From an uncultured Clostridia bacterium (lineage in GTDB: Bacteria; Bacillota; Clostridia; UBA1212): a stretch of DNA of 64,000 nucleotides. The stretch's first letter is position 1, and each line of letters starts with the position of its first letter. The stretch covers positions 25,501-89,500 of the forward strand of contig CAMZBI010000001.1 in NCBI GenBank assembly GCA_947304585.1. Reading direction: 5' to 3'. The notes beneath the pieces were generated by a model. It had not been told where the DNA came from. It ran no database searches and worked only from the letters and a program-made list of their open reading frames with translations. The position numbers and the translations under genes were made by a program. Positions 4,279 to 43,344 of this stretch are shown piece by piece.

Positions 4279-4560
4279 ACGGTCATTTGATTTTACTATT
4301 TTTTTCCTCTTCTTTCAACTCGGTTAAATTTTACTTTTTTCGTGAAATTTTATTTATTACAATTTCTTGTAGTTTAACGCCTACATGTTTCTATATGTTG
4401 TGTTTTGCGGGTTTAAGTGTTGTTTTTTTCATTTTTTTTCTTGTATTTTCCTTGTTGCATAATTATTTTCCGTTTGTTATACTCTTGAAACCCTCTTACT
4501 AATGATAAATTGATTATATGATTTCAACGATGAGAATTGGACAATTGGTTTTTGTTCACC
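4279..4560. promoter_or_regulatory. AT-rich region upstream of dnaA (putative oriC DNA-unwinding element plus dnaA promoter)
   Basis: About 280 bp of very AT-rich sequence with T-runs between divergent thyA and dnaA. Confidence 0.45.
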
Positions 4561-4581
4561 ATTCTCGCTAAGGAGCACTCC

Positions 4582-5967
4582 ATGAATTTTTTGGATGGAT
4601 ATTCCTCTATCTGGGATAGTTTTACAAGCGAATACAGATCGGTTCTCGGGTCTGCCATTTTCTTTTCAACATATATCGAACCCTCTTCCATCGCATACTA
4701 TGACGGGGAGACTGTAGTTATTGCATGCGAAAATTCTCTTGCCGAGAAGTTTTTTACAAAGCGCTACGAGTCGGTGAATTCTGTTTTCACGCAGGTCCTC
4801 GGCCATGAGTGCACCCTTGTTTTTACTTCTGACAAAGACGAGATCGCCCGCTTCAAGTCCCTCTCTCCCGACGGCGACGCCAATGTTTCCGATATCATTG
4901 ACACTAAAAATGCCGTTGGCAGCGCTGTAGTGACTCTTTTTGGCGATGAAAACTCTTCAAACCTAATTTCCAAGTATACTTTTGACAATTTCGTTGTCGG
5001 CGACAACTGCCGCCAGGCTTACAGCGTAGCCACCCAGATCGCGGCAAATCCCGGCGTTCTCTACAACCCTGTTTTTATTTATGCCAGTTCCGGCCTCGGA
5101 AAGACCCACCTTCTCCATGCCATTGGCAATGAAATAAAAAAGAACGATCCCAAAAAGCGCATTCTGTACGTGCCCACGGAAACCTTCACCACCGACTATA
5201 TTTCATCCATTCAGAACAACAAAATGAGCGAATTCCGGATGAAGTACAGATCTGTTGACGTTCTTCTTATCGACGATATTCAGTTTATTGCCAATAAATC
5301 CGGCACCCAGGAGGAGTTTTTCAACACCTTCAACGAGCTCTATGCCCACGACAAGCAGATAGTCATCTCCAGCGACTGCAGAATATCCGAGATCAATGCC
5401 CTTGCGGAGCGTTTAAAGACAAGGTTTGAGAACGGTTTCCAGACTTCCATCGCCGCGCCTGACTATGAGGTCCGCTATGCGATCATGCTTAAGAAGAGCG
5501 ACGATATGGATATGGACATTTCCCGGGAGATTCTTGATTCCCTTGCCCAGTCTGACCTTACCAACGTCCGTGAAATAGAAGGCATCCTGAACCAGTTCAA
5601 GCTGCTGGCATCCCACGGAGAAAAGATCACCATGGAAGCCGCCAGAAAAGCCCTCAGTCATTTGAATATTTCAGAAATAAAGGAAGTCAATACCGAACTG
5701 ATCCTCGACGTGGTCTCCAGATATTTCAACGTTAAAGTTGAAGACATCACCTCAAGGAGCAGATCCAGAGATCTTGTAAAAGCACGCCACATCGCCATGT
5801 ATCTCTGCAGAACTATTCTCGGATATTCGTATCAAAAGATCGCCGACGATTTCGGAGGTCTGAACCACTCCTCAGTTCTCGACGGCTGCAAAAACGTTCA
5901 GGAACGATACCATACCGACGAGGATGTCAAGGCCTACGTTGACGAGATCAAAAAGCTCATTTCTTAA
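4582..5967 (+). CDS. dnaA: chromosomal replication initiator DnaA
   Basis: AAA+ Walker A GLGKTHLL plus C-terminal DnaA-box-binding domain; AAGGAG RBS; start reassigned to MNFLDG. Confidence 0.95.
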   Translation: MNFLDGYSSIWDSFTSEYRSVLGSAIFFSTYIEPSSIAYYDGETVVIACENSLAEKFFTKRYESVNSVFTQVLGHECTLVFTSDKDEIARFKSLSPDGDANVSDIIDTKNAVGSAVVTLFGDENSSNLISKYTFDNFVVGDNCRQAYSVATQIAANPGVLYNPVFIYASSGLGKTHLLHAIGNEIKKNDPKKRILYVPTETFTTDYISSIQNNKMSEFRMKYRSVDVLLIDDIQFIANKSGTQEEFFNTFNELYAHDKQIVISSDCRISEINALAERLKTRFENGFQTSIAAPDYEVRYAIMLKKSDDMDMDISREILDSLAQSDLTNVREIEGILNQFKLLASHGEKITMEAARKALSHLNISEIKEVNTELILDVVSRYFNVKVEDITSRSRSRDLVKARHIAMYLCRTILGYSYQKIADDFGGLNHSSVLDGCKNVQERYHTDEDVKAYVDEIKKLIS

Positions 5968-7443: not shown

Positions 7444-8580
7444 GTGATAATTAAAGGGTTAGAACTTCACAATTTCAGAAATTACAACAGCCTCACGGTT
7501 GATTTTTCCCCGTCCATTAACGTTATCTACGGGAAAAACGGTTACGGGAAAACCAATTTGCTTGAGGCTATGTTTTTATGCTGCGTCGGAAAATCCTTTA
7601 AGTCCGTAAAAGACACGGATCTTATACAGTACGGGAAAGACAGTTATAAGGTCAAGACCCGTATCGACAATAACATCTGCAAGAGTATAAGTGTTTTTTA
7701 TGAGAGAAACAAGTCAAAATACGTTGAAATAGACGGAGCCTACATTGAGAAGCTGAGGATGCTTTTCGGCAATCTCATCGGCCTTGTCTTTTCTCCGGAA
7801 TCTGTTAGAGTAGTTACTGACGGCCCGGCCTACAGGAGAAGGCTTCTTGACATTGCCCTTTGCCAAATAAAAAAGGACTACTACTACAGCTTGATGATGT
7901 ACAACCGGTTCTGCGAAGAGAAGGGAAAGCTTCTCGAACAGGGAACGGCTGCCGATCCCATTGAAATGGAGTCGTTAAACGAAAATATTGCACTGTACGG
8001 AGCAAGTATCGCAGTCGACAGAAAAAATTTCGTTGCGCAGCTGAATGAGCTTGCCGGGAAATACTATTCCGAAATCGCAGGTGAAAGGGAGACAGTCACC
8101 ATGCGATACGAGCCTTTCATCCACTCGTTCTCCGGAGCGGTTAACGAAGGCCTTGAAAATGAAAACCGGTCCGTGACGGAAAGGGTCAAAGAGGAATTTC
8201 TGAAGGAACTCTCTGACGAAAGGCTGATGAAGAGGGAAAGGGAATTCAGAAAGAATCTGATCGGCATCCAAAGGGACGACATCGGCATGTTTCTCGGCGG
8301 AAACAGTCTGAGAAATTTCGGCTCTCAGGGGCAGAAGAGAAGTTTTGCCATTGCGATCACATTGGCGGAACTGGAGATTTTGAGGCAGAAATCGGGCAGG
8401 ACACCCGTGCTTTTCCTTGACGACGTGCTCTCCGAACTGGACAGCTCCAGAAAAAGAAAAATCATCGAAATGACCGGAAAAATACAAACGTTTTACACCT
8501 GCACGGAGAAAGAGATGATGGGTGCGGCTGTTGCCGGAGGGGCGCCGGTGAACTTTATTGATGTTGAAAAACTGAGGTAA
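7444..8580 (+). CDS. recF: DNA replication/repair protein RecF
   Basis: N-terminal P-loop NGYGKTNLLEA; SMC-like signature near the C-terminus. Confidence 0.93.
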   Translation: MIIKGLELHNFRNYNSLTVDFSPSINVIYGKNGYGKTNLLEAMFLCCVGKSFKSVKDTDLIQYGKDSYKVKTRIDNNICKSISVFYERNKSKYVEIDGAYIEKLRMLFGNLIGLVFSPESVRVVTDGPAYRRRLLDIALCQIKKDYYYSLMMYNRFCEEKGKLLEQGTAADPIEMESLNENIALYGASIAVDRKNFVAQLNELAGKYYSEIAGERETVTMRYEPFIHSFSGAVNEGLENENRSVTERVKEEFLKELSDERLMKREREFRKNLIGIQRDDIGMFLGGNSLRNFGSQGQKRSFAIAITLAELEILRQKSGRTPVLFLDDVLSELDSSRKRKIIEMTGKIQTFYTCTEKEMMGAAVAGGAPVNFIDVEKLR

Positions 8581-8626
8581 AAATGATAAAATAAATGTGT
8601 ATATTTACACATCCCGGGAGCAGAAA

Positions 8627-10848
<2,222 letters not shown>

Positions 10849-10961: not shown

Positions 10962-11723
10962 ATGGCTGTTAAGATCATTGCTATTGCAAACCAAAAAGGC
11001 GGAGTGGGAAAGACAACGACTGCGATCAACCTCTCCGCTTCCGTTGCCTATTACGGGAAGAGGGTGCTCCTTGTGGATCTGGATCCCCAGGGAAACGCCA
11101 CTACGGGTCTTGGCATAAACAAGAAAAACCTGGAAAAGTCTTCCTATGACGCCGTGATCAATGACGAACCCGCTTCGGACATTATCATAAAGACGTCCCA
11201 GGAGAATCTGTATCTCATGCCGTCAAACATTTCCCTGGCGGGAGCGGAAGTGGAACTGGTCAGCCTTATGTCGAGGGAGAGCAAACTGAAACTGGCCCTT
11301 GACGAGATCCGGGACGACTATGACTACGTATTTATCGACTGCCCGCCGGCGCTGGGGCTTCTGACGCTCAACGCGCTGACCGCCGCGGATACGGTGCTTG
11401 TGCCCATCCAATGTGAGTTCTACGCCCTTGAGGGACTGTCCCAGCTTCTGGACACTGTTAAAAAAGTTCAGAAGTACCTGAACCGCAGACTGACTGTGGA
11501 GGGCGTAGTTATGACCATGTTCGACGTCAGGACAAATCTTTCGGCGGAAGTTGTCGATGAGGTGAGAAAATATTTCGGGGACAAGGTCTACTCCACATTG
11601 ATCCCCCGGAACATACGGCTGGGCGAGGCGCCGAGCTACGGACAGTCTATAATCCAGTATGACAGCAAATCAAAGGGGGCAGAGGCCTACCTTTCCCTTG
11701 CAAGAGAAGTTCTTGACAAATAG
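10962..11723 (+). CDS. soj: ParA/Soj chromosome partitioning ATPase
   Basis: Deviant Walker A KGGVGKTT. Confidence 0.9.
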   Translation: MAVKIIAIANQKGGVGKTTTAINLSASVAYYGKRVLLVDLDPQGNATTGLGINKKNLEKSSYDAVINDEPASDIIIKTSQENLYLMPSNISLAGAEVELVSLMSRESKLKLALDEIRDDYDYVFIDCPPALGLLTLNALTAADTVLVPIQCEFYALEGLSQLLDTVKKVQKYLNRRLTVEGVVMTMFDVRTNLSAEVVDEVRKYFGDKVYSTLIPRNIRLGEAPSYGQSIIQYDSKSKGAEAYLSLAREVLDK

Positions 11724-11816
11724 TTCAACCGAATCGCATTCTACAGGATCACATTCAAATGGATTGCAGGAGAGGCGAAAATCGTATTAAATCCGGTATT
11801 AAAGGAGGCGGCTTGA

Positions 11817-12710
11817 ATGGCCAGGAAAAGAAACAGCGGTTTGGGACTGGGCATTGACGCACTGTTCCAAAGCACAACAGACCGGGAAGGATCTTTGCCG
11901 GTCACAGGCTCAGTACTGGAAGTGAAGATCAGCGACATTGAGCCGGACGAGAGTCAGCCCCGTAAAAATTTTGATTTCGAGAAGATCAACGAGCTGGCGG
12001 AGTCCATAAAAGCCCACGGCGTTATCCAGCCGCTTATTGTGAGAAGCGAAGGCCCGGTCTATAAAATTATTGCGGGCGAGCGCCGGTGGCGGGCGGCCAG
12101 GATCGCCGGTCTTGAGACTGTGCCGGTCATTGAGAAGTCGGTAACCGAACGGGAAGTTCTGGAGATCGCCCTGATCGAAAACATCCAGCGGGAGGACCTG
12201 AACCCGATTGAAGAGGCGGAGGCCTTTGACAGACTGATCAACGATTTCGGCATGACCCAGGAGACGTTGGCGTCCACTATTTCCAAAAGCAGGACCGACA
12301 TAACCAATTCGATCCGCCTGCTCTCCCTTGACCCCGAGATCAAGGCCATGATCGCAGCAGGTCAGCTCACAAAGGGTCACGGGAAAGCCCTTCTGGGACT
12401 GAACGGTTCCATTGATGCGGTAAAAGTTGCCAAGGCCATGGCGGAGGAGAGCATCAGCGTCCGGCAGGCGGAAAAACTTGTCAGCAGATACAATGCGCTG
12501 AAGAGCGGCTCCGAGCCGAAAAAAGCGGAAGCCGGAAGCGACGAGTTTACCATTTCAAAGAAGAGCGTTGAGTCAAAACTGAAGAAAAAACTGGGGACAA
12601 AGATATCCCTGGTGGAGAAAGCCAAAAACGGAAAAGGCAAGATCCAGATCTTTTACTATTCCGCAGACGAGAGAGAGCGGCTGATAGAGATGCTTCTCGG
12701 CGAAGATTGA
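11817..12710 (+). CDS. spo0J: ParB/Spo0J chromosome partitioning protein
   Basis: GERRWRAA CTPase motif and HTH; AAAGGAGG RBS. Confidence 0.9.
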   Translation: MARKRNSGLGLGIDALFQSTTDREGSLPVTGSVLEVKISDIEPDESQPRKNFDFEKINELAESIKAHGVIQPLIVRSEGPVYKIIAGERRWRAARIAGLETVPVIEKSVTEREVLEIALIENIQREDLNPIEEAEAFDRLINDFGMTQETLASTISKSRTDITNSIRLLSLDPEIKAMIAAGQLTKGHGKALLGLNGSIDAVKVAKAMAEESISVRQAEKLVSRYNALKSGSEPKKAEAGSDEFTISKKSVESKLKKKLGTKISLVEKAKNGKGKIQIFYYSADERERLIEMLLGED

Positions 12711-12738: not shown

Positions 12739-13488
12739 ATGAAAGAATTTTTTGATAAACTGTCGAATTTTATGGATTTTCAAACGCAGATCTACATCAT
12801 CATGGGAGTCTTTTTTCTCCTGCTTCTGCTTTGCTTCATCCTGCTGGTAGTTGTCGGCGTAAAGAACAAAAAGCTTGCCGAAGAGGTCAAAGGGATGAGA
12901 AAGGCATTGGCAAAGGTCAAAAAAACCGCCAATGCAGTTCAGGAGGCCGCCGGTGAACAGCCGGTTGCCGGTGAGATCTCTGTTGACGCGGAACAAGAGG
13001 CGCCTGAGGAGAAGGTGATTCCGGAAAAAATTGAGGAAGACGAGACCGAAGATTTGCCGGAAGCAGGACAATCACCGGAGAAAGAGGCAGACGACCGGCC
13101 GGCAGAAGATGCCCCGGAGAAGAATGCAGATAAAAACGAGGCCGCAACTGAAGCAACGGCGACGGTCCTTCCCGAGGAACAGCAGGCGTTTAATGAGGCT
13201 GTTGAGGCTGAAATCGACGCCCTTAAGGAAAAAACAGACCTCATCGCCAAAAATCAGCGAAAGAGCTTTGACAAAATTAAAGTTGTGCGGTATAGTTCAA
13301 CTCTGCCTGACGGAACGGAGACCGTTTCATACTCTATCGGTATTACCAATCAGGACAGAGACGGTATCGTGCTGACAGGCACCGAAACTGCGGACGGAGC
13401 CACGTCTCTCGTGGTGAAATCCGTCAAGGGAGGATTAAGCAAAACTCCTTTGACCGCAGCAGAGGACTGCGCCATCAAACGCGGCTGA
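12739..13488 (+). CDS. DUF4446-like membrane-anchored protein with acidic low-complexity linker
   Basis: N-terminal TM helix, E/A/P-rich acidic segment, conserved C-terminal domain; typical position downstream of parB. Confidence 0.55.
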   Translation: MKEFFDKLSNFMDFQTQIYIIMGVFFLLLLLCFILLVVVGVKNKKLAEEVKGMRKALAKVKKTANAVQEAAGEQPVAGEISVDAEQEAPEEKVIPEKIEEDETEDLPEAGQSPEKEADDRPAEDAPEKNADKNEAATEATATVLPEEQQAFNEAVEAEIDALKEKTDLIAKNQRKSFDKIKVVRYSSTLPDGTETVSYSIGITNQDRDGIVLTGTETADGATSLVVKSVKGGLSKTPLTAAEDCAIKRG

Positions 13489-14900: not shown

Positions 14901-14928
14901 TCGTAATAATTTGCTATAAAAAGGTAAA

Positions 14929-14970
14929 AGCAGCCTTCCCGCAAAAGCCTTTGCGGGAAGGCTGCTTTCG
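14929..14970. terminator. strong hairpin terminator after serS
   Basis: GCAGCCTTCCCGCAAA/TTTGCGGGAAGGCTGC stem of about 16 bp followed by a T-rich tail; further GC hairpins to 15027. Confidence 0.65.
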
Positions 14971-15028: not shown

Positions 15029-15967
15029 TCACTTGGCAATTTTGATGATGATCTCGATCGCATTATCCGTTTCGGTCCTCTCGATGGTTGCGGGGATGCC
15101 GCTGCTTTTAATTCTGTTGACGTTGGACTGGAGGGTCTTTATCAGCAGGCTCCGTTCCTTGTCAATGGCGAAATTCAGGTCTTTCAGGGACTTGTTAATC
15201 AGGTCGACGTATGCCTCCTTGCCCAGTTCAGACAGAGATACGTTTTTTAGTATTTTCCCCAGCTGCTCGACTCTTTTCGAACCTATCCTCCTGCGAACTA
15301 TCAGTTTAGCGGTGTATAGCTGCATTTCCTCGGTCTCAATGCTGAGGAGCGCTCTGCAATGCCTTTCAGAGAGACCTGAGGCCAGGGCGGCTTTCTGGAC
15401 CGCAGGGCTCAGGCTTGCCAGGCGGAGTTTATTGGCAATTGTGGGCTGAGCGACGCCGAACCAGGCGATCAGGTCCTTTTGGGTCAGTTGAACTTTTGAG
15501 TTAAGAAAATGAAAACCGTTTGAGATCTCGAAAAAATCTGCGACGGGGTTGTTGCAGGCGGTGACGCAGGCAAGGACGTCCTTGATCAGGTCGCTGTCGA
15601 TTTCGTAAATGACGGCTTTTACGAAATCACCGGACTTCGGCGAATGGAGGACAGGTACGGCGCCGTCAACAGGCCTGATCATGCGGTACTTCCCGGGACC
15701 TTCCCAAAGCACGACAGCAATAGGAGTTCGAATCGAAGTCTGCGCGACGGGACCCACAAGGTCGAAATACTGTTCGAGAGCCATTCCTCCCGGCAAAAAG
15801 ACCTCGCCAAGAGGCAATACGTCAATGCGGCAGGAGACCGGCCCGTCCCCGCTTCTGTTAACGATCTGACTGAAGATCTTCCTTTGCTCACTGAAGGAAG
15901 AGGTTTCATGTTTTCGTGACACCGGCAATTCATCCGATTCGTTTCTTTTCTCTTTTGTAGCGTTCAT
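15029..15967 (-). CDS. ParB/Noc-like HTH protein with degenerate N-terminal domain (no GERRxRA motif)
   Basis: C-terminal half aligns by eye with the ParB/Noc HTH (…QPTIANKLRLASLSPAVQKAALASGLSERHCRALLSIE…). Start reassigned to MNATKEK (GGGAGG RBS). Confidence 0.5.
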   Translation of the reverse strand: MNATKEKRNESDELPVSRKHETSSFSEQRKIFSQIVNRSGDGPVSCRIDVLPLGEVFLPGGMALEQYFDLVGPVAQTSIRTPIAVVLWEGPGKYRMIRPVDGAVPVLHSPKSGDFVKAVIYEIDSDLIKDVLACVTACNNPVADFFEISNGFHFLNSKVQLTQKDLIAWFGVAQPTIANKLRLASLSPAVQKAALASGLSERHCRALLSIETEEMQLYTAKLIVRRRIGSKRVEQLGKILKNVSLSELGKEAYVDLINKSLKDLNFAIDKERSLLIKTLQSNVNRIKSSGIPATIERTETDNAIEIIIKIAK

Positions 15968-16101
15968 TATTAACCTCCCGTACGGCAATAAGCCGGAATA
16001 ATGAATAATTATACACTATGTGAAATAAAAAACAAGAGAAAAAATGAAAAAATAGAAAAAAATTCAAGATATAAAAAAACATAGATAAAAAAAGAAAAAA
16101 T

Positions 16102-16132
16102 TCCCGACAAAATCCGACAAATTTCGACAAAA
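16102..16132 (-). promoter_or_regulatory. three tandem Spo0A-box-like repeats (TTTTGTCGRR) at 10-bp spacing upstream of the ParB-like gene
   Basis: Minus-strand reading is TTTTGTCGAAATTTGTCGGATTTTGTCGGGAA. One TGTCGAA is perfect; two TGTCGGR are 6/7. They lie 135-165 bp upstream of the start. Confidence 0.35.
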
Positions 16133-16335
16133 TTAGAAAACGCCAACAAACACGATCCGACACAACAAACAGCCTGACAGCAAAGGGACAGCCGCCAATA
16201 ATCGTTCCGCCGCAGGTTGAAACCTGTATCATGTTCAGATTGAATCAGATTTCGGGGAAATACGTTCTATGACAGAATAAACTCAGAAAAAAAGCGGCTG
16301 CTTGACGTTTGGCAAGTAACCGCAGATCATTACAA

Positions 16336-16815
16336 TTATTGTTTTTTTGTTAACCGGCGAAGGATCTCAACTCCCCGTTGTATCATGTCTTCTTCCCGGC
16401 AATTTTTCGCTTCCAGAATGCGTTCAATGGCAGCGGCGTTGTCAAGAGAGTGGTAAGGATAGAATAGTTCTCTGAGCTCGACCGGCTTTATGATTCGGTA
16501 GACTTGCCGGCTCGTCTTTTCATAGGTATAACACCAATATCGGTAAAGGTAACCCATCCAGTACAATTCATTTTCAGAGTACTTCACTTTGCCGTAACTG
16601 CTCTTTCCAAACGCTTCTTCGATCTCTGCAATAACAGATTCGTTGGTGCTTGATTCAAACAAAAAGCTGCCGTTGTCGATTCTTTTCGCAGCAGAAGAAT
16701 TCATAAAACGGCGCAGGAAAACCGCAGAACTGCAATTCGTCAAATCGATTGATGATACAAACAGTTTCGCCTGGATTCTGCATAGTATTTGTCCTGTTTC
16801 ATCCATTGGCTTCAT
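16336..16815 (-). CDS. hypothetical protein (159 aa)
   Basis: Intact ORF, no family recognised. Confidence 0.4.
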   Translation of the reverse strand: MKPMDETGQILCRIQAKLFVSSIDLTNCSSAVFLRRFMNSSAAKRIDNGSFLFESSTNESVIAEIEEAFGKSSYGKVKYSENELYWMGYLYRYWCYTYEKTSRQVYRIIKPVELRELFYPYHSLDNAAAIERILEAKNCREEDMIQRGVEILRRLTKKQ

Positions 16816-17022
16816 TTTCGTAAATATCCAAAGTAGTCAAGCTGCCTGCGGGCAATAGTGCCGTAACGTTAACAAAACTTGTTATCCGCAAATGTCGACA
16901 GCAAGTTTTCGAGCGTGTCGGATGACACAAGATTAACAGACAGATTTGCACCGGCCTGGCCTTTTTCTGAGACGTAATTATGACATTATTCGGAATAAAA
17001 AAGTATGAGTATTTGACCGCGG

Positions 17023-18831
17023 TTATTTCTGCCTTACGACCGCTTTTTTACCCTTGAAGGCTATGCCGACCCTGATGATTCCGGACATGCCCTGATCAAG
17101 CAGGTCGGATTCATATTTCTTTTCTTCGATCTGCGCGAGAGCCGCATTGGCAAGTGATTCAAGATCATCGGTGTCTTTGCCGGCATATTTGAATTCAAAT
17201 ATAAAGCAGGGGTCTGTTTTGTTTTCCGGTATGAGTGCAATATCAAACCGACCGTATCCGGATTCCGCATTTGACTTGATCCTGTATTGGGGGCTTAGGA
17301 CCGCACAAAGCCCAAGCATCATGCCGTGATAAAAACTCTCGCCTGTTCCGTCGAAAACAGAGACCGAACTGAGCATAAAATCTTCAAGCAGTTTTTGAAG
17401 CTTGGATGCGTCGTTGGAAAAGAGGGCTTGCCGAATATTGATCGCAGCATTTGTTCTTCCGGTTTTGTTCAGGATTTCTTTCCCGTAAACAAAGGCAATT
17501 TCCTTGTTCGGGACCGCCACGTCGCACATATAGTTTCCGTCGTGCTGCGGGTAGATCTTGGCGACCTTGAGATACCCGGCGACAAGCAGAAAACTGTAAA
17601 TGCTGTACGGATTGTTCTGCACTTCCGGATATATGACGCCTGTGTCGATATAGGATGTGACGGTCTCGCCGGACATCAGTTTATACAAAGCCTCTGTAAT
17701 CTCATCGTTTGCGGCGCCGACGATCTCGCCAATAATGTCATTGCTCCCGGTGGATTGCCAAAACGCCTTGGCAAAGCAGTTTTCGGCAACGTAGTTGATG
17801 ACCGACCAGGGGTTGAATATCTCCGTGGTGCCGAACATATATCCATCATACCAGTCGCACACCTCGTCGAACTTGTCGCCGCACCCGTAGTATTCAAGCA
17901 TCCGGCGGACTTCCTCTTTTGTAAAGCCGAAGTAAGAACTGTACTGCTCGTCGAGAATGGAATTGACCGACAAGTTGTTCAGTCCGCTGAAAATGCTTTC
18001 TTTTGCAACCCGAAGAATGCCGGTCAGGAACCCGTACGCAAGGTGGGAATTGTCCTTGAGCCCGCCGGAGAAGAAGTTGCGCATAAAATCTATAACGTCC
18101 TTGTAGAAGCCCTCTGTATGCCCCTGCTGGATAGGAGTGTCGTACTCGTCAATTATTATAATGGTCTGCTTGCCGTAATGCCTGTGAAGAAACAGAGACA
18201 GGGTCTTGAGCGAAAGCTGATACTCGGTCGAATCTGCTTTGCCCGTTGACAGGTCGGCATACTGTGCCTTTTCATAATCACTTAGCCGGTCGCTTTTTTC
18301 GAGTTCCGGGTGCCGCCTGAATTCTGCGGAGACCAACTTTGCGAGCATTTCATAGGTTTCCCGCCAATTTGAACATTTTACGTCCTTAAATGACAGGAAG
18401 ATCACAGGGTATTGGCCCTGATAGCCTGTGTATGCCTTGCCGTATGACCATATGGCTTTATCGCTAAAGTATTTTGAAGTATCTTCGTCCGTTTTTTCAA
18501 AAAACACGCGCAGCATGTCCATGTTCAAGGTTTTGCCGAACCTGCGCGGACGCAAGAAAAGGGAGACCAGCGGCTTTTTGTCAAGAAAGTCCTTGATCAG
18601 CATGGTCTTGTCAACGTAGTAGTAGTCCGACGTCGCAATTCTGTAATCGGAAATGCCCACAGGAAGCGGCTTTTTGGAGCCGCCGATATCGCCAATGGCA
18701 TCGGAAGGGATACGCCAATGTCGTCCTTCTTTTCTGGCGCCGCGGATCTCGCCTGAGGCGCACATTTGCTGAATTCTTCTTGAGGTGATATTCAATTCGT
18801 TTGCCGCATCGGCAACTGAAATAAAGTTCAT
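17023..18831 (-). CDS. HTH + AAA-ATPase-like (AAA_35) + PD-(D/E)XK nuclease-like (DUF1703) protein
   Basis: N-terminal excisionase/MerR-like HTH (…ELNITSRRIQQMCASGEIRGARKEGRHWRIP…). Then …YYYVDKTMLIKDFLDKKPLVSLFLRPRRFGKTLNMDML… typical of the AAA_35 family. Start reassigned to MNFISV (GGGAGG RBS). Confidence 0.7.
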   Translation of the reverse strand: MNFISVADAANELNITSRRIQQMCASGEIRGARKEGRHWRIPSDAIGDIGGSKKPLPVGISDYRIATSDYYYVDKTMLIKDFLDKKPLVSLFLRPRRFGKTLNMDMLRVFFEKTDEDTSKYFSDKAIWSYGKAYTGYQGQYPVIFLSFKDVKCSNWRETYEMLAKLVSAEFRRHPELEKSDRLSDYEKAQYADLSTGKADSTEYQLSLKTLSLFLHRHYGKQTIIIIDEYDTPIQQGHTEGFYKDVIDFMRNFFSGGLKDNSHLAYGFLTGILRVAKESIFSGLNNLSVNSILDEQYSSYFGFTKEEVRRMLEYYGCGDKFDEVCDWYDGYMFGTTEIFNPWSVINYVAENCFAKAFWQSTGSNDIIGEIVGAANDEITEALYKLMSGETVTSYIDTGVIYPEVQNNPYSIYSFLLVAGYLKVAKIYPQHDGNYMCDVAVPNKEIAFVYGKEILNKTGRTNAAINIRQALFSNDASKLQKLLEDFMLSSVSVFDGTGESFYHGMMLGLCAVLSPQYRIKSNAESGYGRFDIALIPENKTDPCFIFEFKYAGKDTDDLESLANAALAQIEEKKYESDLLDQGMSGIIRVGIAFKGKKAVVRQK

Positions 18832-18872
18832 GGCGAACCTCCCTAACGGTTTCTGCCATCCGATTTTAGCAC

Positions 18873-18907
18873 ATCGAGCGAAATCAATCAATGAAATTTC
18901 GCTCGAT
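18873..18907. promoter_or_regulatory. perfect 12-bp inverted repeat operator candidate upstream of the HTH-AAA_35 gene
   Basis: ATCGAGCGAAAT-N11-ATTTCGCTCGAT, plus a third half-site ATTTCGCTCGGAT at 18927. Confidence 0.4.
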
Positions 18908-19281
18908 TTCGCATAAATACAAATCAATTTCGCTCGGATTTCGTTTGCACGCAACGCTCGCGAAGACGGAAATTGCCAATGGAGATCCACAGATGTCAGT
19001 GAAAATTACGCCGCACAGCACAAATCCACATAAAACCCAAAGAAAATTTACACTTTTCCACGGATTTTTCTTCGATTTTCTGCACTTTTTCCGATTGGTG
19101 CGGTCCGGCTCGTACTAGTCAATAAAAAAGACACAAAAGTTCGCAGCAGGCATCAAAAACCGCCCCCCAAAAGTGCGGCTATGCATTGCGGAGCAACGTC
19201 GGGGATTACGGCAGGAGCGACGGTGTTGGCGGCAGAACGGCTTTATTTATAAAATAAAAAGGAAATAATTGAAAAAAACGC

Positions 19282-25039: not shown

Positions 25040-25378
25040 CATGCACTTTGCATCGCTGCGCTTTTTTGTTTTTGATGATTTCATAAACCCGCACTTAGCT
25101 GCGGGGCGGTAATCTTTGAAATCGCTTTTGCCCAAAAGGCAGGAGCGGCAAACCAAATATTTTGCCAATATATTTCCGGGGAAACGCAGCCGGATTTCGG
25201 ACAGCTGCGACCGGCCCGGATAGTTTCTACCATGACGCCGAATGTCACGACTATTGGGAAACCCCGTTTCAAGCGATCGAATTGCCGGAGCGGGACGTGT
25301 TGGCAAAAACAGACCCCTTAAAAGGTCTGCTTTTTGTTTGCAGTATACACACGTTATATTCAATATTTGGAGGAAATT

Positions 25379-26569
25379 ATGAAAAGAATTATTGCGATCA
25401 TCGTTGCAATCATTGCCGTATTCGCTTTCGCAGCCTGCGGCCCCACAGAGAAACATGACGTTAAAATCGGTGTGATCTGTCTCCACGACGAGAACTCCAC
25501 CTACGACGCCAACTTCATCAACGCCATCAAAGCAGTCCAGAAATCTCTCGGACTCTCTGACAGCCAGGTCATCATCAGAACCAACGTTGACGAGTCCATC
25601 GACTGCTACAACGCAGCAGCCGAGATGGTCGACGCAGGCTGCAACATCGTTTTTGCAGACAGCTTCGGTCACGAGGACTTCATGATCCAGGCAGCTCAGG
25701 AATTCCCGAACGTTCAGTTCTGCCACGCTACCGGAACCAAGGCTAAAACAGCCGGTCTTTCCAACTTCCACAACGCATTCGCTTCCATCTATGAAGGCCG
25801 TTACCTCGCAGGTATCGCTGCCGGCATGAAGCTCAACGAAATGATCGAGAGCGGCAAGATCACAGCTGACCAGGCCAAGATCGGTTACGTCGGTGCATGG
25901 CCCTATGCAGAAGTTAAATCCGGTTACACCTCCTTCTTCCTCGGCGCAAGATCTGTTTGCCAGAGCGCAACAATGAAGGTCGTTTTCACAATGTCCTGGT
26001 TCGATATCGCCAAAGAGAAAGAGTCCGCTGAGAAACTGATCAACGACGGTTGCGTCCTCATCAGCCAGCACGCTGACTCCGAAGGTGCTCCTAAGGCTTG
26101 CGAAAAAGCAGGTGTTCCGAACATTGCCTACAACATCGACACCGGCGACCTCGGCCCCAACACAGCCATCATCTCCTCGAAGATCGACTGGGAGCCTTAC
26201 TTCAAGCTCATCATCGATGCAGTTGCCAACGGCACAGCTATCCCCACCGACTACTGCGGTGACTTCTCCACCGGTTCCGTTGCTCTTACCGAACTCCACG
26301 AGAACGTTGCAGCAGCAGGCACAAAAGCCGCTATCGAAGCTGCAAAAGCAAAACTGATCTCCGGCGAGATCAAAGTTTTCGACACCAGCAAGTTCACAGT
26401 TGAAGGAAAGACTCTTACCGAATACATTGCCGACGTTATCGACAACGGCGACTATGTTCCCGAGACCAACGTTATCCACGACGGTTACTTCGACGAGTCC
26501 AACGCAAAAGACTTCAGATCTGCTCCTTACTTTGATCTCACCATTGACGGTATCACTGTAGAGCAATAA
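25379..26569 (+). CDS. BMP-family (PnrA/Med-like) ABC substrate-binding lipoprotein
   Basis: Lipobox FAACG after MKRIIAIIVAIIAV; BMP family fold; GGAGG RBS. Confidence 0.85.
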   Translation: MKRIIAIIVAIIAVFAFAACGPTEKHDVKIGVICLHDENSTYDANFINAIKAVQKSLGLSDSQVIIRTNVDESIDCYNAAAEMVDAGCNIVFADSFGHEDFMIQAAQEFPNVQFCHATGTKAKTAGLSNFHNAFASIYEGRYLAGIAAGMKLNEMIESGKITADQAKIGYVGAWPYAEVKSGYTSFFLGARSVCQSATMKVVFTMSWFDIAKEKESAEKLINDGCVLISQHADSEGAPKACEKAGVPNIAYNIDTGDLGPNTAIISSKIDWEPYFKLIIDAVANGTAIPTDYCGDFSTGSVALTELHENVAAAGTKAAIEAAKAKLISGEIKVFDTSKFTVEGKTLTEYIADVIDNGDYVPETNVIHDGYFDESNAKDFRSAPYFDLTIDGITVEQ

Positions 26570-26825
26570 TCACTGACCGACAGGGCGGACGGATCTCTTA
26601 AAGATCCAGCCGCACCCAGACGACCGGCAGGGTGCCGCTGACGAAAAGCGCCCTGCCGGAACCCGGTCCATCGGCTTACTGCGGCTCGGTCCGAAAACGA
26701 CGCCGCAGCAGCGGAATTGAAAACATACGGCGGAAAGCCGTGAGAAGAGACCACCACGGGGGCAAAGCTTCGTGGCTGTTTGTTTTGACGGCTTACACAG
26801 GGAAAACTGCGAAGGAGAACAGAGC

Positions 26826-28356
26826 TTTGGAAAGTGTTGCTATAGAGCTGAGAGGGATCTGCAAGCGGTTCGGCCGGATACAGGCGAACAACAATGTGAA
26901 TCTCACACTGTACCACGGAGAAATACTGTCTCTGCTCGGTGAGAACGGTTCCGGAAAGACCACGCTTATGAACATGATCTCCGGCATCTACTATCCCGAT
27001 GCGGGACAGATTTTTATTAACGGGGAAGAAGTGGTCATCAAGTCGCCAAAGGACGCCTTTGACCATGGAATAGGAATGATCCACCAGCACTTCAAACTCA
27101 TTGACGTGTTTACCGCAACGGAAAACATTGTCCTGGGTCTGGAGGAGAAGGGCCGTTTCGACATAAAAGCCGCCTCCAAAAGGGTCAAGGAACTCTGCGA
27201 CAGGTACGGCTTCATTCTTGATCCCGACAAAAAAATATACGAGATGTCCGTCTCCGAAAAGCAGACCGTTGAGATCATCAAGGTGCTTTACAGAGGCGCC
27301 AATATCCTTATCCTTGACGAGCCCACGGCGGTGCTGACTCCTCAGGAAACCGTAAAGCTGTTCGAAGTCATGCGCAAAATGAAAGAGGACGGCAAGGCCA
27401 TCATAATCATCACCCACAAGCTCAACGAGGTCCTTTCGGTCTCCGACCGTGTCACGGTGCTGAGAAAGGGCGAGACCATCGGCTCCGTCAATACCGCGGA
27501 GGCGACGGCCGAGAGCCTTACGGAGATGATGGTCGGCAAGAAAGTCGTTCTCAACATAGAGCGCACGGATCCTGACAACCCGGAGGACAGGCTTATCATT
27601 GACGGTCTGAACTGCATCAACCGTGAAGGCGTCCAGGTACTCAAAGATATTTCCTTTACCGCAAAAGCGGGAGAGATCCTGGGCATTGCCGGAATCGCAG
27701 GCAGCGGCCAGAGGGAGCTTCTTGAGTCCATTGCCGGACTTCAGCATGTGAACACCGGATCCATCGTCTATATCGATCCTGAAACCGGGAAAGAAAAGAA
27801 ACTCAGAGACATGACCCCAATGCAGATAAGAAGCCTTGGCGTCAGACTTTCCTTCGTGCCTGAGGACAGGCTCGGCATGGGTCTTGTGGGTAACATGGAT
27901 ATTGTCGACAATATGATGCTGAGAAGCTACAGCAAAGGAAAATCCGCATTTTTACAGAAAAAAGAGCCTACAGACCTGGCACAGCAGATAGTGGACAGGC
28001 TGGAAGTGGTGACGCCAAACATCTCCACTCCCGTGAGAAGGCTTTCCGGCGGCAACGTGCAGAAAGTCCTTGTGGGCAGAGAGATATCCTCGGGACCCAC
28101 AGTCCTTATGGTGGCCTATCCCGTGAGAGGTCTTGACATCAACTCCTCCTACCTCATCTACAATCTCCTCAACAAGCAGAAGGAGAACAGGGCGGCGGTC
28201 ATTTTCGTTGGCGAGGACCTGGACGTGCTCATCGCCCTCTGCGACAGGATCATCGTTCTCGGCGGCGGCCGCATCACAGGCGAAGTTGACGCCAGAAACA
28301 CGACAAAAGAACAGATAGGATATCTTATGACAAAATCGGCCGGAGGTGAGGAATGA
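26826..28356 (+). CDS. ABC transporter ATP-binding protein (duplicated NBD)
   Basis: Two Walker A/signature sets (GENGSGKTT…, …LSGGNVQK…). TTG start after AAGGAG; the upstream ORF extension is judged non-coding. Confidence 0.8.
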
Positions 28357-29462
28357 TGGAAGCGAAACCAAAAAAGGAACCTCTGATCCACATAACCAAA
28401 CGTGACGTGATGCCCCTCTGGAAGGCGATACTGGTTAGAGTTATCGCCATTGCCATTGCCCTTGCGGTATCGGCGGGCCTCGTGGTCATCCTGACCCAGA
28501 AGAACCCTTTGGAGATCTTCTCCGCCATGTTCAACGGCAGCTTCGGAACCCCCAGAAAGATCCTCAACATGCTGCAGGACGTGGCAATGCTTCTCTGCAT
28601 CGCATTGGCGGTGACGCCGGCCTTCAGAATGAAATTCTGGAACATCGGAGCCGAGGGACAGGTGCTCATGGGGGCGTTGGCGTCTGCGGCGCTCATGTAT
28701 TTCCTTGGCGGCAGCGGTCTTCCCAACGGGGTGCTGATCCCGATGATGTTCATTGGGTCCCTTGCCGTGGGTATGATCTGGGCGGTGATCCCGGCCATAT
28801 TTAAAGCGATCTGGAACACCAATGAGACCCTGTTCACCCTGATGATGAACTACGTGGCAATGCAGATAATCCAGATTTGCATCGCCAGCTGGGCCACCAG
28901 CGGCTCCGGCGTCATGGGCGTCATCAACCTGAACACCAAGTTGGGCTGGCTCCCGGATCTCTTTGGCCAGAAATACATTCTGAACATAATTTTTGTGGCG
29001 CTGCTCACGGTCTTCGTGTTCATCTACATGAAGTACAGCAAGCAGGGCTACGAGATCGCAGTCGTTGGCGAGAGCGAGAACACCGCCAGGTACATCGGCA
29101 TCAACGTAAAGAAGGTCATCATCAGGACGATGCTCATTTCCGGTGCGATGTGCGGTTTTGCGGGCTTCCTGCTGGTCTCCGGCGCAAGCCATACTATAAC
29201 CAAGGACCTTGCCGGCGGCATGGGCTTTACGGCAATCATGGTCTCCTGGCTTGCCAAGTTCAACCCCGCGATAATGGTGGGCACCTCCTTCCTGCTGGTC
29301 TTCCTCGACAAGGGCGCCAGCAGCATTGCCATGGAGTGCAGGCTTAACGAGAGCGTTGGCGAGATCATCACTGGCATAATCATTTTCTTCATAATCGGCT
29401 GTGAATTCTTCATCAGATACAAGATCAACTTCCGTTCTTCCGGAAAGGAGGCGGCGAAATGA
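28353..29462 (+). CDS. ABC transporter permease
   Basis: Polytopic membrane protein; 4-nt overlap with the ATPase gene. Confidence 0.85.
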   Translation: MMEAKPKKEPLIHITKRDVMPLWKAILVRVIAIAIALAVSAGLVVILTQKNPLEIFSAMFNGSFGTPRKILNMLQDVAMLLCIALAVTPAFRMKFWNIGAEGQVLMGALASAALMYFLGGSGLPNGVLIPMMFIGSLAVGMIWAVIPAIFKAIWNTNETLFTLMMNYVAMQIIQICIASWATSGSGVMGVINLNTKLGWLPDLFGQKYILNIIFVALLTVFVFIYMKYSKQGYEIAVVGESENTARYIGINVKKVIIRTMLISGAMCGFAGFLLVSGASHTITKDLAGGMGFTAIMVSWLAKFNPAIMVGTSFLLVFLDKGASSIAMECRLNESVGEIITGIIIFFIIGCEFFIRYKINFRSSGKEAAK

Positions 29463-30439
29463 CCAAGATAATCCATATTCTGATCGCGGCAATAGTTCAG
29501 GGCATCCCCCTTCTGTTCGGCGCCACAGGTGAGATAATCACCGAAAAGAGCGGCAACCTAAACCTGGGCATACCGGGAATAATGTACGTTGGCGGAATCT
29601 CAGGAATCGTTGGCGGTTACCTCTACGAAAGGGCGACGGACACGCCAAACGGTTTCCTGCTGGTACTGATCCCGCTGCTCTCCTCGCTGCTGGGCTCGCT
29701 GCTGATGTCGCTGATCTACAGTTTTCTGACCATCACCCTCAGGGCGAACCAGAACGTCACGGGACTTGCCCTCACCACCTTCGGTATTGGCGTCGGCAAC
29801 TTCTTCGGCGGCTCCCTCCTCAGTATGTTCGGTGAGACGGGCTCCATTGCCCTCAAGGAAACCGGCAAGGCCTTCAGAACGACGCTGCCCTTTGCCTACT
29901 CCCTTGGTCCTGTCGGCGAGCTATTCTTCTCCTACGGTTTTCTGGCTTACACCGCGATCATCATCGCAGTGGTGGCGGGCATCATATTCAACAAGACCAG
30001 AGTCGGCCTGAACCTTAAGTCGGTGGGCGAAAATCCGGCAACGGCAGACGCTGCAGGCATCAACGTCACAAAGTACAAGTATTTCGCAACCTGCATCGGC
30101 GGCATGATCGCGGGCCTGGGCGGACTCTACTGGGTCATGGACTACACCGACGGCGCCTGGACCAACAACGGTTTCGGCGACAGAGGCTGGCTTGCAATCG
30201 CCATCGTAATTTTCGCGATATGGCGGCCACGCTTGGCAATCCCCAGCGCCTTCCTGTTCGGCGGCCTGTACATCCTCAGCGTGTTCATCCCGGGCCTCAC
30301 CAGCTGGATGAAGGAAGCCATCAACATGCTGCCCTACCTTGTCACCATCATAGTTCTGTGCACCGTGAGCGCGAGAAAGAAGAGGGAAAACCTGCCTCCC
30401 GCAAGCCTGGGCCTGTCCTATTTCCGGGAAGAGCGTTGA
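29459..30439 (+). CDS. ABC transporter permease
   Basis: Second permease; 4-nt overlap with the first. Confidence 0.85.
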   Translation: MTKIIHILIAAIVQGIPLLFGATGEIITEKSGNLNLGIPGIMYVGGISGIVGGYLYERATDTPNGFLLVLIPLLSSLLGSLLMSLIYSFLTITLRANQNVTGLALTTFGIGVGNFFGGSLLSMFGETGSIALKETGKAFRTTLPFAYSLGPVGELFFSYGFLAYTAIIIAVVAGIIFNKTRVGLNLKSVGENPATADAAGINVTKYKYFATCIGGMIAGLGGLYWVMDYTDGAWTNNGFGDRGWLAIAIVIFAIWRPRLAIPSAFLFGGLYILSVFIPGLTSWMKEAINMLPYLVTIIVLCTVSARKKRENLPPASLGLSYFREER

Positions 30440-32415: not shown

Positions 32416-32516
32416 CAAAAGCAAACTTTTTGTGGCAAGACAAGACGAAATGAGTTTGGTACAATTTGCAATGTAAAAAATAGCCGGCATTTTTAAGACG
32501 GGAGGTGATTCCGCAA

Positions 32517-33005
32517 ATGAACACAGCTGAAAAAATCATAGCGCTCAGAGCTGAGAGAGGCATTTCGCAGCAGGAACTTGCTGACGCAGTTTTTGTTTCA
32601 CGATCTCTCGTGTCAATGTGGGAGGCGGGAACACGCATTCCGGACAGTTTGAGCGTTGAGAAAATGGCTGCGTTGTTCAATGTAAGTGAGGAGGAGATTT
32701 TGAGCGATAGGAAATACGCTTTTGCGTCGTCGCTTGAGAGGAAACTCATTGGCGATGAGATTGCGGAGTTTACCGATGTTGACAGTTCACCGGGTGACAA
32801 GGAACAGGTAAAAAAGATAATGAACGGGTTCCTTCAAAGCATTGGTGGCGTTGACCGCGAGTTGTTTATGAGTCGATACTTCGAAATGAAAACATGCAAA
32901 GCTATCTCAGAGGAAACGCATATGAACGTTTCTACAGTCAGGTGGAGATTGTCCAAACTGAGAAAGAAGCTTGTGCTTTACGCGAAAAAAGGAGGTAAAA
33001 AATGA
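32517..33005 (+). CDS. XRE-HTH + sigma-70 region 4 fusion regulator (ECF-like)
   Basis: N-terminal Cro/C1 HTH (…RGISQQELADAVFVSRSLVSMWEAG…); C-terminal sigma region 4.2-like (…RELFMSRYFEMKTCKAISEETHMNVSTVRWRLSKLRKKL). GGAGGTG RBS. Confidence 0.65.
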   Translation: MNTAEKIIALRAERGISQQELADAVFVSRSLVSMWEAGTRIPDSLSVEKMAALFNVSEEEILSDRKYAFASSLERKLIGDEIAEFTDVDSSPGDKEQVKKIMNGFLQSIGGVDRELFMSRYFEMKTCKAISEETHMNVSTVRWRLSKLRKKLVLYAKKGGKK

Positions 33006-39572: not shown

Positions 39573-40266
39573 GACTCTATTTAGTTTTCAAGTCATGTTA
39601 TCTTGTACACTGTATCTATTTAGTCTGTACAGTGCATCTTTTAGGGATGTACAGTAGGCCAAAAACGGCCCTCTGCATCTAAATCGACCACACACCACAA
39701 GGTGAACCCGGGTCCCCGAAAGTGCTCGCGCTTTTGGGGAGAGGAGCCGGGGCGGCGGGAATGGAGTCTTTCAAGTGAGGATCTATAAACTTCTTGAAAG
39801 ACGGAATCGTCGGCGTTCGCGGCGACGAAAATAGATGCACACGCAAAAATCGGCTATTTTTAGCCGATTGGAGCGGCTCGAAAGGCCAAAAATTTTAGTG
39901 CGAAATAAAAAGATGCAAAAGCCTATTCCCGAGGGGAATCCATAGGGGCCCCCGAAACTCGCTTTCACACATTGGCCCGTCACTAGTCCGCTTTCGCGGA
40001 AATCGTTCCGGCTCCAATGTGTGGCGCGAGATGGGCCTATTTATGCGCTTTTGGGGAGAAGGAGCCGCAGAGACGCAAACGAAGTGGTCCAAGCGAATAC
40101 AATCTTATAATGCTTGAAACACGCAGTCGGCGTCTCTTGCGGCGACGCATTCGTACGCTATTAAAGCCTTACAACAAGAGTCTTTAAGGGAAAAAGAGAG
40201 CTATATTAAAACAAGAAATAACGGTTTGTTGACGACTGAGTGATGAAACTTCAGCCGGCTTTTTAG
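39573..40266 (+). repeat. structured modular repeat, copy D (composite, two tandem module sets)
   Basis: ACTGTATCTATTTAG and TGTACAGT(×2) block; CCCCGAAAGTGC…GCGCTTTTGGGG; GTCTTTCAAG…CTTGAAAGAC; AATCGGCTA-TTTTT-TAGCCGATT; second helix CCCCCGAAA…CTTTTGGGG enclosing CACACATTGG…CCAATGTGTG; micro-ORF; terminator. Confidence 0.75.
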
Positions 40267-43254: not shown

Positions 43255-43344
43255 TTTGTTCGAAATGTTTGATTTTTGGCGTTGTTTAGAGTAAGATAGT
43301 TTTGAAATCTAACAGTTCGATAAACAGGGATTTGTGAGGATGTT

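Follow-up and report, generated by a model that had tools for sequence, protein, structure and literature searches.

The proteins ParB, Noc, KorB and VirB are now all understood as clamps gated by cytidine triphosphate (CTP). What, then, does the ParB scaffold do without that switch, and how is the production of such a protein controlled? These questions are raised by a gene close to the replication origin in a 64,000-nucleotide stretch of genomic DNA from an uncultured Clostridia bacterium (contig CAMZBI010000001.1, positions 25,501 to 89,500; hereafter the window, whose positions serve as coordinates throughout). The gene encodes a 312-residue Noc-like protein, called PBL here, without the CTP boxes, and is preceded by three direct repeats spaced exactly 10 bp apart. 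Taken as a whole, PBL may be a static, Noc-derived DNA-binding protein, with the repeat array as a docking site through which its expression would be tuned; we put the probability of this combined proposal at about 0.55.

A Noc-like protein that has lost the nucleotide boxes

The gene and the domains of its product are arranged as follows (residue numbers refer to the 312-residue product).

15029–15988, minus strand: open reading frame (ORF), from the reading-frame track
15029–15967, minus strand: coding sequence of PBL, 312 residues, start MNATKEK, stop TGA at 15029–15031
15974–15979, minus strand: ribosome-binding site GGGAGG, 6 nt ahead of the ATG at 15967, from the sequence
15593–15838, minus strand: degenerate ParB_N-like N-domain, residues 44–125 (hhalign, Protein Data Bank (PDB) profile alignment, AlphaFold2 (AF2) model)
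15656–15676, minus strand: Box II position, R98-P-V-D-G-A-V104 in place of GERRxRA (profile alignments)
15542–15562, minus strand: Box III position, T136-A-C-N-N-P-V142 in place of ENxQRxD (profile alignments)
15251–15535, minus strand: ParB-type helix-turn-helix (HTH) domain, residues 145–239 (Pfam HTH_ParB)
15032–15220, minus strand: C-terminal helix and two-strand dimerisation-type domain, residues 250–312, ending IEIIIKIAK (hhalign, AF2)
14926–14969, no strand assigned: bidirectional intrinsic terminator common to PBL and the convergent serS, a 20-bp stem followed by a T-run

The initial annotation of this DNA, made from the letters alone, had read the C-terminal half of the protein as the HTH region of ParB and Noc, and the N-terminal half as a degenerate ParB-type domain devoid of the GERRxRA motif. 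Both readings hold. The sole Pfam match in PBL is HTH_ParB (PF17762; residues 145–239, E 1.5e-18, 67 bits against a cutoff of 22.6), ParB_N not being matched in the same search, and comparison of families by hidden Markov models places PBL in the ParB/Noc superfamily rather than in an unrelated HTH family: the family profile aligns end to end with clostridial Noc-like and ParB proteins (hhalign; probability 100%, E 3.7e-50, 269 columns). A sequence-profile search of the PDB ranks Noc (7ol9, 3.7e-21) ahead of Spo0J (6sdk, 1.3e-14), and the closest solved relatives are the Noc structures 7ol9 and 6y93. The AF2 model of PBL (mean confidence, pLDDT, of 82; residues 1–29 disordered, with pLDDT below 50) likewise retrieves Noc structures at the top, followed by CDP- and CTP-bound ParB proteins, over 200–230 columns that correspond to the N-domain and the DNA-binding domain. 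It places strands at residues 293–310, in a C-domain that aligns end to end with that of clostridial Noc-like proteins ('..Y.E..I.IPK'). By sequence and predicted fold, PBL is a member of the ParB/Noc superfamily, with an HTH domain, an N-terminal ParB/Srx fold and a C-terminal domain of dimerisation type.

All three nucleotide boxes are lost in every member of the PBL family. Box I (QPR) is missing from the hhalign alignment, the family consensus at Box II reads xP.dG.v instead of GERRxRA, and that at Box III reads v..Cssp.ah instead of ENLQRxDL; neither GERR, nor QPR, nor ENxQR in the Box III place occurs in any of the 11 family representatives. The ParA-binding peptide, searched for as the regular expression LG[KR]GL, is equally absent from all family members. 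As to the amphipathic membrane helix of Noc, no conserved helix is visible at the N-termini, which are variable, of low complexity and predicted to be disordered.

The residues that face DNA tell a different part of the story. The choice between parS and the Noc-binding site (NBS) is set by four positions, R173/T179/A184/G201 in ParB and Q/K/K/R in Noc, and a single permissive lysine is enough for NBS specificity (Jalal 2020, PMC7383237). The corresponding residues of PBL are Q174, K180, S185 and R202, and so of Noc type, with Q174 and R202 standing where parS-type proteins have R173 and G201. Every family member has the Q; at position 180 most have K or R, and at position 202 the residue is R or K.

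PBL has its own promoter (see below) and terminator and is therefore monocistronic, and it has no ParA partner gene of its own. A monocistronic gene without a ParA partner, whose product has no nucleotide boxes, is not that of a canonical CTP-gated ParB clamp, as had already been supposed. On sequence grounds PBL lies outside canonical ParB, having neither the boxes nor the ParA peptide nor the parS residues. It also lies outside Noc as curated: the CTP boxes and the genomic position differ, a membrane helix is not evident, and the NCBIfam Noc model (TIGR04285) is matched at positions 98–255, in its C-terminal part alone, with 89 bits against a cutoff of 315.

The proposed start at MNATKEK is well placed. 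An AGGAGG-type ribosome-binding site is found in the matching place in PBL orthologues, whose N-termini agree with this start (M(N/K)xTK(E/D)), and a public-database protein (P0001) is identical to the 312-residue product. The 23-residue N-terminal stretch mentioned alongside this start in the initial annotation did not stand, as the alternative TTG start would add 7 codons only.

Family, genomic context and rate of evolution

An exhaustive protein search recovered a small PBL family (P0015–P0025), followed by thousands of ordinary ParB and Noc proteins; a word-index homologue search returned nothing beyond PBL itself and ParB matches at the level of the HTH domain. Family members are 26–41% identical to the PBL of the window, mostly over residues ~44–312. 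All copies at NCBI are labelled 'hypothetical protein [Clostridia bacterium]' and all derive from metagenome-assembled genomes, and a search of JGI metagenomes with a family-specific codon pattern gave only five loci.

Gene order is the same in every locus fetched with its flanks: dnaN-recF-remB-like-gyrB-soj-parB-DUF4446-serS, followed by PBL on the opposite strand and by the diverging rpsL-rpsG-fusA-tuf genes. With dnaA at 4537–5967 and soj-parB at 10962–12710, the window comprises the oriC region, and the statement that PBL lies next to oriC is correct. The closest generic relatives of PBL are found directly upstream of soj and are annotated noc by the NCBI annotation pipeline (PGAP). In the lineage of the window, gyrB abuts soj and this noc position is empty. 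Since the relatives sit upstream of soj and the slot is empty here, PBL is read as the relocated, box-less descendant of a Noc paralogue. It is, as judged from these sequence comparisons, a lineage-restricted and fast-evolving descendant of the clostridial Noc-type ParB paralogue.

Pairwise identity across genomes is 31–51% for PBL, against 57–85% for canonical ParB, 79–93% for Soj, 84–96% for SerS and 92–99% for RpsL, and PBL evolves about 10 times as fast as its neighbour genes. Ratios of non-synonymous to synonymous substitution (dN/dS) in the closest available pair of loci (L096 and L098) are 0.24 for PBL, 0.06 for parB, 0.03 for serS and 0.17 for the DUF4446 gene, values that are rough because dS is near saturation. 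Along PBL, the ratio is about 1 in the N-terminal tail, 0.15–0.23 in the N-domain, 0.07–0.08 in the HTH domain and 0.17 in the C-domain. The family alignment has 19 invariant columns, and the ORF is intact in all sampled lineages (11 representative clusters and the metagenome loci, with one representative and one locus truncated). By these sequence measures PBL is functional yet unusually fast-evolving, with its folded part under purifying selection.

A mobile-element origin was considered. Searches of plasmids and phages by tblastn found only chromosomal noc genes in mislabelled records, and there is therefore no sign of such an origin. PADLOC gave no match for PBL, and hence no link to a known defence system.

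Further observations concern the family and its surroundings. A wider and older Noc-like set (P0025–P0028 and P0040) is likewise devoid of GERR, ENxQR and QPR, and shares with the family a Trp ahead of the HTH domain (..W[LF]..SQP..). Wherever the context is known, distant box-less Noc-like genes (L093, 724–1644; L099, 498–1370) are found in the position of PBL, between serS and rpsL. The interval between PBL and rpsL is an insertion hotspot, empty in most relatives and occupied at 16336–18990 (minus strand) in the window and at 805–7096 in L091. The window insertion carries ORF159, which gives a weak PADLOC match to the defence candidate PDC-M42B (E 4e-6), and a gene combining HTH_17, AAA-ATPase_like and PDDEXK_9; that of L091 carries a Tubulin_2-like gene and a gene for an 844-residue protein. 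A domain related to the former, in a Tubulin_2-like protein of 714 residues, is encoded elsewhere in the window (54423–56567, plus strand). The DUF4446 membrane protein encoded downstream of parB (12739–13488, plus strand) is also fast-evolving, with a low-complexity acidic middle and only its C-terminal ~100 residues conserved.

A conserved promoter with a phased array upstream

The upstream region of PBL contains the following elements.

16008–16015, minus strand: extended −10 element TGTATAAT (sequence, orthologues)
16030–16035, minus strand: −35-like hexamer TTGTTT, 16-nt spacer (sequence, orthologues)
16036–16100, minus strand: helically phased T-tract spacer from array to promoter, its length kept and its sequence not conserved (periodicity)
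16101–16131, minus strand: three direct repeats TTTGTCG with exact 10-bp spacing (sequence, pattern counts)
16156–16162, minus strand: fourth box TGTCGGA, 33 bp further upstream in the same orientation, with 6/7 matches to the 0A consensus
16249–16261, minus strand: NBS-like 13-mer ATTTCCCCGAAAT, a perfect left half of a Noc-binding site; candidate PBL site of uncertain significance

For comparison between lineages, all orthologue upstream regions were anchored on the −10 element. An extended −10 sequence (T)GTATAAT is found 36–75 bp ahead of the ATG (TATAAT without TG in L081 and L093), with a TTGxxx hexamer such as TTGCAT, TTGATT or TTGAAA 16–17 bp further upstream, and the ungapped identity of this promoter block is 0.61 against 0.34 expected. 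These sequence comparisons largely show that PBL is transcribed alone from a conserved promoter of sigma-A type with an extended −10 element.

On the gene strand the array reads TTTTGTCGAAA-TTTGTCGGAT-TTTTGTCGGGAA. Its boxes are TGTCGAA (16123–16129), TGTCGGA (16113–16119) and TGTCGGG (16103–16109), their TGTCG cores beginning at 16129, 16119 and 16109. Three repeats exactly 10 bp apart had been pointed out upstream of the gene, and they are indeed there, with box starts 136–162 bp from the ATG. Measured upstream from the first T of the −10 element, the distances to the GTCG cores of the array are 95, 105 and 115 bp, and the core of the fourth box is at −148. The predicted start site of this promoter, whose extended −10 element is near consensus, is about 107–127 bp downstream of the array. 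Of the scores originally given against the 0A consensus TGTCGAA, one perfect box and one 6/7 match are confirmed, whereas the third box, also given as 6/7, is in fact a 5/7 match.

Whether such an array is remarkable depends on what is counted. Single 0A boxes occur at chance level in the window (17 exact matches against 12 expected, and 255 against 232 with one mismatch), and the TGTCGAC and TGTCGGA motifs singled out at 16890–16930, though present, are isolated, of mixed orientation and unremarkable. The phased triple, on the other hand, is far above chance, as a check of motif frequency envisaged in the initial annotation now shows: 0.01 occurrences of the pattern TTTGTCG-N4-TTGTCG-N4-TTGTCG are expected per window, and 0.07 triples of GTCG at 9–11 bp from start to start are expected per 64 kb. 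Among the matches listed, there were no such triples in 1.08 Mb of other clostridial loci, a control made up of loci from a contig scan with LSERHxRALL, a pattern common to all clostridial Noc-like proteins. The lag-10 autocorrelation of G/C at 16001–16180 is the highest of 3193 segments of 140 bp in the 64 kb.

The array is also conserved in position. An island ATTTTtgtcg.aTTTT..GGAaa.T is evident at −111 to −86 in the ungapped alignment, and GTCG cores occur at −105/−106 in seven lineages and at −115 to −117 in five, their positions being fixed within 1 bp. With an identity of 0.40 against 0.37 expected, the 50-bp spacer between array and promoter is not conserved in sequence, but it is in length. 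In twelve upstream regions of 200 bp, GTCG is found 29 times against 9.5 +/- 3.2 expected, and its reverse, CGAC, twice against 3.2. The phase of the units is coherent at a period of 10 (R = 0.71, Rayleigh p about 1e-6), a p-value that overstates the case because units within an array and related lineages are not independent. A 10-bp periodicity at about the 97th percentile or above of intergenic controls is seen in 7 of 13 orthologue regions.

Copy number, by contrast with position, is highly variable, from one GTCG unit to about 10. There are 8–10 units in L096 (GTCGAAAAT), about 6 in L098, three TGTCG units in L084 (at −131, −115 and −105), two in L095 followed by CCGGAAAT units, and a single unit within an identical 15-mer, TTTTGTCGCATTTTT, in each of L082, L087 and L088. 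The most divergent lineage, L091, has four GTAC units and a fifth, CTAC, in exact 10-bp steps. GTCG is absent from the upstream 200 bp of L081 and L093 and from the array region of L085, in which a single GTCG lies inside the promoter spacer. No RNA family was matched in an Rfam scan of 15900–17100, and an RNA element is therefore unlikely. These sequence comparisons mark the array as a true cis-element, conserved at a distance from the promoter and kept in phase with it along the helix.

Other repeat structures were noted in upstream regions of the family that have no GTCG array. L081 features a direct repeat of 23 bp in tandem, as well as a perfect palindrome of 24 bp, the loop of which contains ATATTTCCGAAAATTC (7600–7650 and 7775–7850), and L088 features four 12-bp units of the form TTCCGAATATAT at ~7760–7810.

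Which factor may bind the array?

The repeats had been taken for tandem Spo0A boxes, and PBL for a sporulation-phase factor switched by phosphorylated Spo0A (Spo0A~P) and involved in nucleoid occlusion or origin tethering. The array itself is real and conserved, as assumed; its assignment to Spo0A is not established. A head-to-tail layout at 10 bp is that of the Spo0A-DNA crystal structure and of the abrB site, and the units upstream of PBL are arranged in just this manner, ahead of a gene which is moreover proximal to oriC. The box at 16123–16129 is a perfect 0A box, perfect TGTCGAA boxes are also found in L095 and L096, and many xGTCGAA units are present in L090, L096 and L098. Spo0A contacts G2, C4 and G5 of TGTCGAA, usually within A/T flanks, and its real targets often have degenerate boxes (work on C. 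difficile that draws on the Bacillus structure, PMC3485338). The conserved GTCG core coincides with these contacts, again with A/T flanks.

However, the remainder of the 0A box is poorly kept, with A at position 6 in 9 of 27 units and at position 7 in 17 of 27, and the density of single boxes is at chance. The GTAC array of L091 is difficult to reconcile with a DNA-binding domain of Spo0A that is near-invariant. GTCG is lacking in the upstream 200 bp of L081 and in the array region of L085. Arrays of up to about 10 units (L096) are unusual for Spo0A, and the site, at −107 to −127, belongs to a promoter whose extended −10 element is already near consensus. None of the ~50 genes of the window is a sporulation gene, nor were any seen in the flanks (up to 10 kb) of related contigs. 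In view of this balance, Spo0A as the factor that binds the array is a tentative assignment, more probably wrong than right, and the broader picture of PBL as a Spo0A~P-switched sporulation factor is equally doubtful. Response regulators of the OmpR/PhoB type match the geometry of the array just as well, and there is perhaps a slightly slimmer chance, to judge from the sequence, that the array is bound by such another tandem-binding factor. By-eye comparison with the DnaA box, CodY box, parS and WalR/PhoB-type consensus sequences gave partial matches only, none of them better than 0A; such partial matches are typical of AT-rich DNA with a CG core.

PBL could instead bind its own upstream region, either for autoregulation or to nucleate a small centromere-like complex, its targets being the GTCG units, NBS-like split half-sites (TTTTGTCG-N6-8-CGGAAAT; split site TTTTGTCGCATTTTTGCGGAAAT) or ATTTCCGGAAAT palindromes, alone or in combination. 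An auto-operator had been offered early on as the alternative to Spo0A. It would account for an array found only at the PBL gene, for the Noc-type specificity residues of PBL and for the fast turnover of both the protein and the upstream region, and the consensus of the conserved island does resemble two NBS half-sites one helical turn apart (TTTTGTCG ... CGGAAAT). The interval from array to promoter contains NBS-like palindromes in L090 and L098 (the 12-mer ATTTCCGGAAAT), in L095 and in L091 (TTTTCCGTGGAAAT), and the NBS-like 13-mer of the window is comparable. In the 64 kb as a whole, NBS-like sites (ATTTCCCGGGAAAT, at most 3 mismatches) number 12 against 5.1 expected, with none of 100 shuffles reaching 12; the best is ATTTCCCGGGAGAT at 5518–5531 in dnaA, and others are found e.g. 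at 20082 and 41605. Chance matches do occur, however, such as that at 25172, an incidental part of a purine riboswitch. The hypothesis is weakened mainly by the one-orientation enrichment of GTCG (29 against 2), unfit for a dyad-symmetric dimer, and by the lack of any covariation seen across PBL lineages between recognition-helix residues and repeat core: L096, with GTCG, and L091, with GTAC, share a near-identical recognition helix, NLSQST(V/I)SNRLRLLS. In most lineages, furthermore, the array does not overlap the promoter. Binding by PBL itself thus appears unlikely from the sequence, and the same holds for the auto-operator as a whole.

The array may, finally, be architectural, with A/T tracts phased at 10 bp forming curved DNA or a site around which a RemA-type ring is wrapped, and an upstream activating effect of little sequence specificity. 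RemA sites consist of at least 6 periodic, poorly conserved, AT-rich repeats of 7 bp, separated by 3 bp each, and extend to about −150 (PMC8481266). This geometry is shared by the PBL array, in full in L096 (8–10 units) and in part in the window (3 units and phased T-tracts), and a RemA-like gene in the remB position is present at 8597–8911. The top 10-bp periodicity of the window, its recurrence in over half of the orthologue regions, and a period maintained while sequence and copy number of the units vary all agree with such a function. It is nevertheless the G/C core and not the A/T part that comprises the best-conserved positions, three lineages with a single unit share the 15-mer TTTTGTCGCATTTTT without any change, and a strict orientation bias is unexpected from curvature alone. 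An architectural or RemA-like element is in consequence improbable as the explanation of these sequences.

That PBL is a former noc copy drifting into a functionless pseudogene is very improbable, for while every nucleotide box is lost, identity is 31–51% where neighbours reach 80–98%, and dN/dS is ~1 in the N-terminal tail, the ORFs are intact across the sampled lineages, dN/dS in the folded part is 0.07–0.23, 19 alignment columns are invariant, and promoter, ribosome-binding site and genomic slot are conserved.

A proposal for the function of PBL and its upstream module

We propose that PBL would be a static DNA binder, dimeric and site-specific, that prefers NBS-like sequences. From its sequence, it is expected to be incapable of CTP-dependent gate closure, of sliding, and of tethering to the membrane under the control of CTP. 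It is because CTP gate, sliding and membrane switch would be unavailable that a role as a static regulator or anchor is put forward. The array, for its part, would be the dock for a factor that binds along one face of the helix in a head-to-tail manner, a mode of binding that points to a protein of the response-regulator type. Spo0A~P may be regarded as the best named candidate. Once docked, the factor would tune the expression of PBL.

Several considerations weigh against this proposal. Binding by PBL and binding by a factor at the array are both inferred from sequence, and the loss of the boxes is no proof that all nucleotide binding is gone. The presumed docking site lies at an unusual distance upstream, and the promoter itself looks constitutive. 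L091 has GTAC units in place of GTCG, and GTCG is absent from the upstream 200 bp of L081 and from the array region of L085. The cautions expressed above on phase statistics and dN/dS apply here too, as do the degenerate positions 6 and 7 of the boxes and the lack of sporulation genes where Spo0A~P is concerned.

It is tempting to go further and to speculate that a Noc descendant without a CTP switch has taken on a new role in clostridia without RacA, as a static DNA anchor or regulator near the origin, that Spo0A~P or a comparable master response regulator sets its production through the array, and that its rapid evolution reflects co-evolution with lineage-specific sites or partners. This extended scenario is a long shot. 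If true, it would amount to a natural experiment on the ParB/Noc scaffold without nucleotide gating.

Other features of the window

No parS-like site (TGTTNCACGTGAAACA, at most 2 mismatches) was found in the 64 kb despite the presence of soj-parB and dnaA, a match with 3 mismatches at 38188 being the only one. The purine riboswitch mentioned above (25146–25273, plus strand) precedes a gene for a Bmp-family binding protein and an ABC transporter operon (25334–30439), and this arrangement is conserved beside tuf in related loci. A noncoding element without a match in Rfam is present in two copies (40055–40265 and 42990–43255, plus strand) with a ~125-nt core that is ~88% identical and a conserved, terminator-like 3′ end (...TGACGACTGAGTGATGAAAnTTCAGCCGGCTTTTT). 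The copies precede plus-strand genes, an ORF6N-domain gene at 40410 and a GNAT gene at 43345, respectively, and the copy at 43 kb has a 68-nt insertion. Two similar gene pairs are found at 32505–35233 (plus strand) and 49820–51717 (minus strand). Each encodes a ~160-residue protein with HTH_3 and sigma-70 region-4 domains, whose gene shares a 4-nt start/stop overlap with a large ORF (743 or 472 residues) that has no family match.

Comparison with known systems

The closest known system is Noc of Bacillus subtilis and Geobacillus (7ol9, 7nfu, 6y93), together with the clostridial paralogues in the noc position, all of which are homologous to PBL over its full length and three domains. PBL resembles Noc in its best sequence and fold matches, in the specificity residues Q, K and R, in its lack of a ParA-binding peptide and in its proximity to oriC, and it shares with the clostridial Noc-like proteins a C-terminal '..IxIPK' motif. 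It differs from Noc in the absence of CTP Boxes I, II and III, in a variable disordered tail instead of a recognisable amphipathic membrane helix, in a score of 89 bits where the NCBIfam cutoff is 315, in being encoded on the opposite strand, between serS and rpsL, rather than upstream of soj, and in evolving about 10 times faster than its neighbours. Canonical ParB/Spo0J, encoded in the same window at 11817–12710 and only 2.3 kb from PBL, belongs to the same superfamily and has the same three-domain plan. Unlike PBL, it features GERRWRAA, ENIQRED and the ParB-type residues (R...G), and its gene forms an operon with soj.

Orphan ParB-like proteins are widespread, and several of them bound no nucleoside triphosphate in vitro in a 2025 survey (PMC12704722), so that loss of the switch in PBL would not be unprecedented. 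Such orphans, and PadC, provide a precedent for a ParB fold without canonical CTP switching. They are mostly long-branch proteins, often borne by mobile elements or fused to other domains, whereas PBL is chromosomal and syntenic and has kept both HTH and dimerisation domains. KorB and VirB are also comparable, as ParB-type HTH proteins that regulate promoters, in some cases at a distance. Both are reported to require CTP for clamping or switching (PMC11790492, PMC10770331), in contrast to PBL, from which the CTP boxes are absent.

The array, in turn, resembles tandem Spo0A sites, such as that of the abrB promoter, and arrays of the OmpR/PhoB type: direct repeats in one orientation, with a period of 10–11 bp, upstream of a promoter, and in the case of Spo0A with contacted bases that correspond to the array core GxCG. 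It departs from these sites in lacking conserved A6 and A7, in having up to ~10 units, and in its distal position. In the literature searched, a chromosomal, syntenic descendant of Noc with such a promoter module has not been described. The upstream module may represent a clean case of a promoter controlled from a distance and in a phase-locked way, in uncultured Clostridia of the gut and rumen. The PBL family, devoid of any CTP box yet under purifying selection and in a fixed slot beside parAB and oriC, offers in 312 residues a compact test case for what the ParB scaffold does without its switch.

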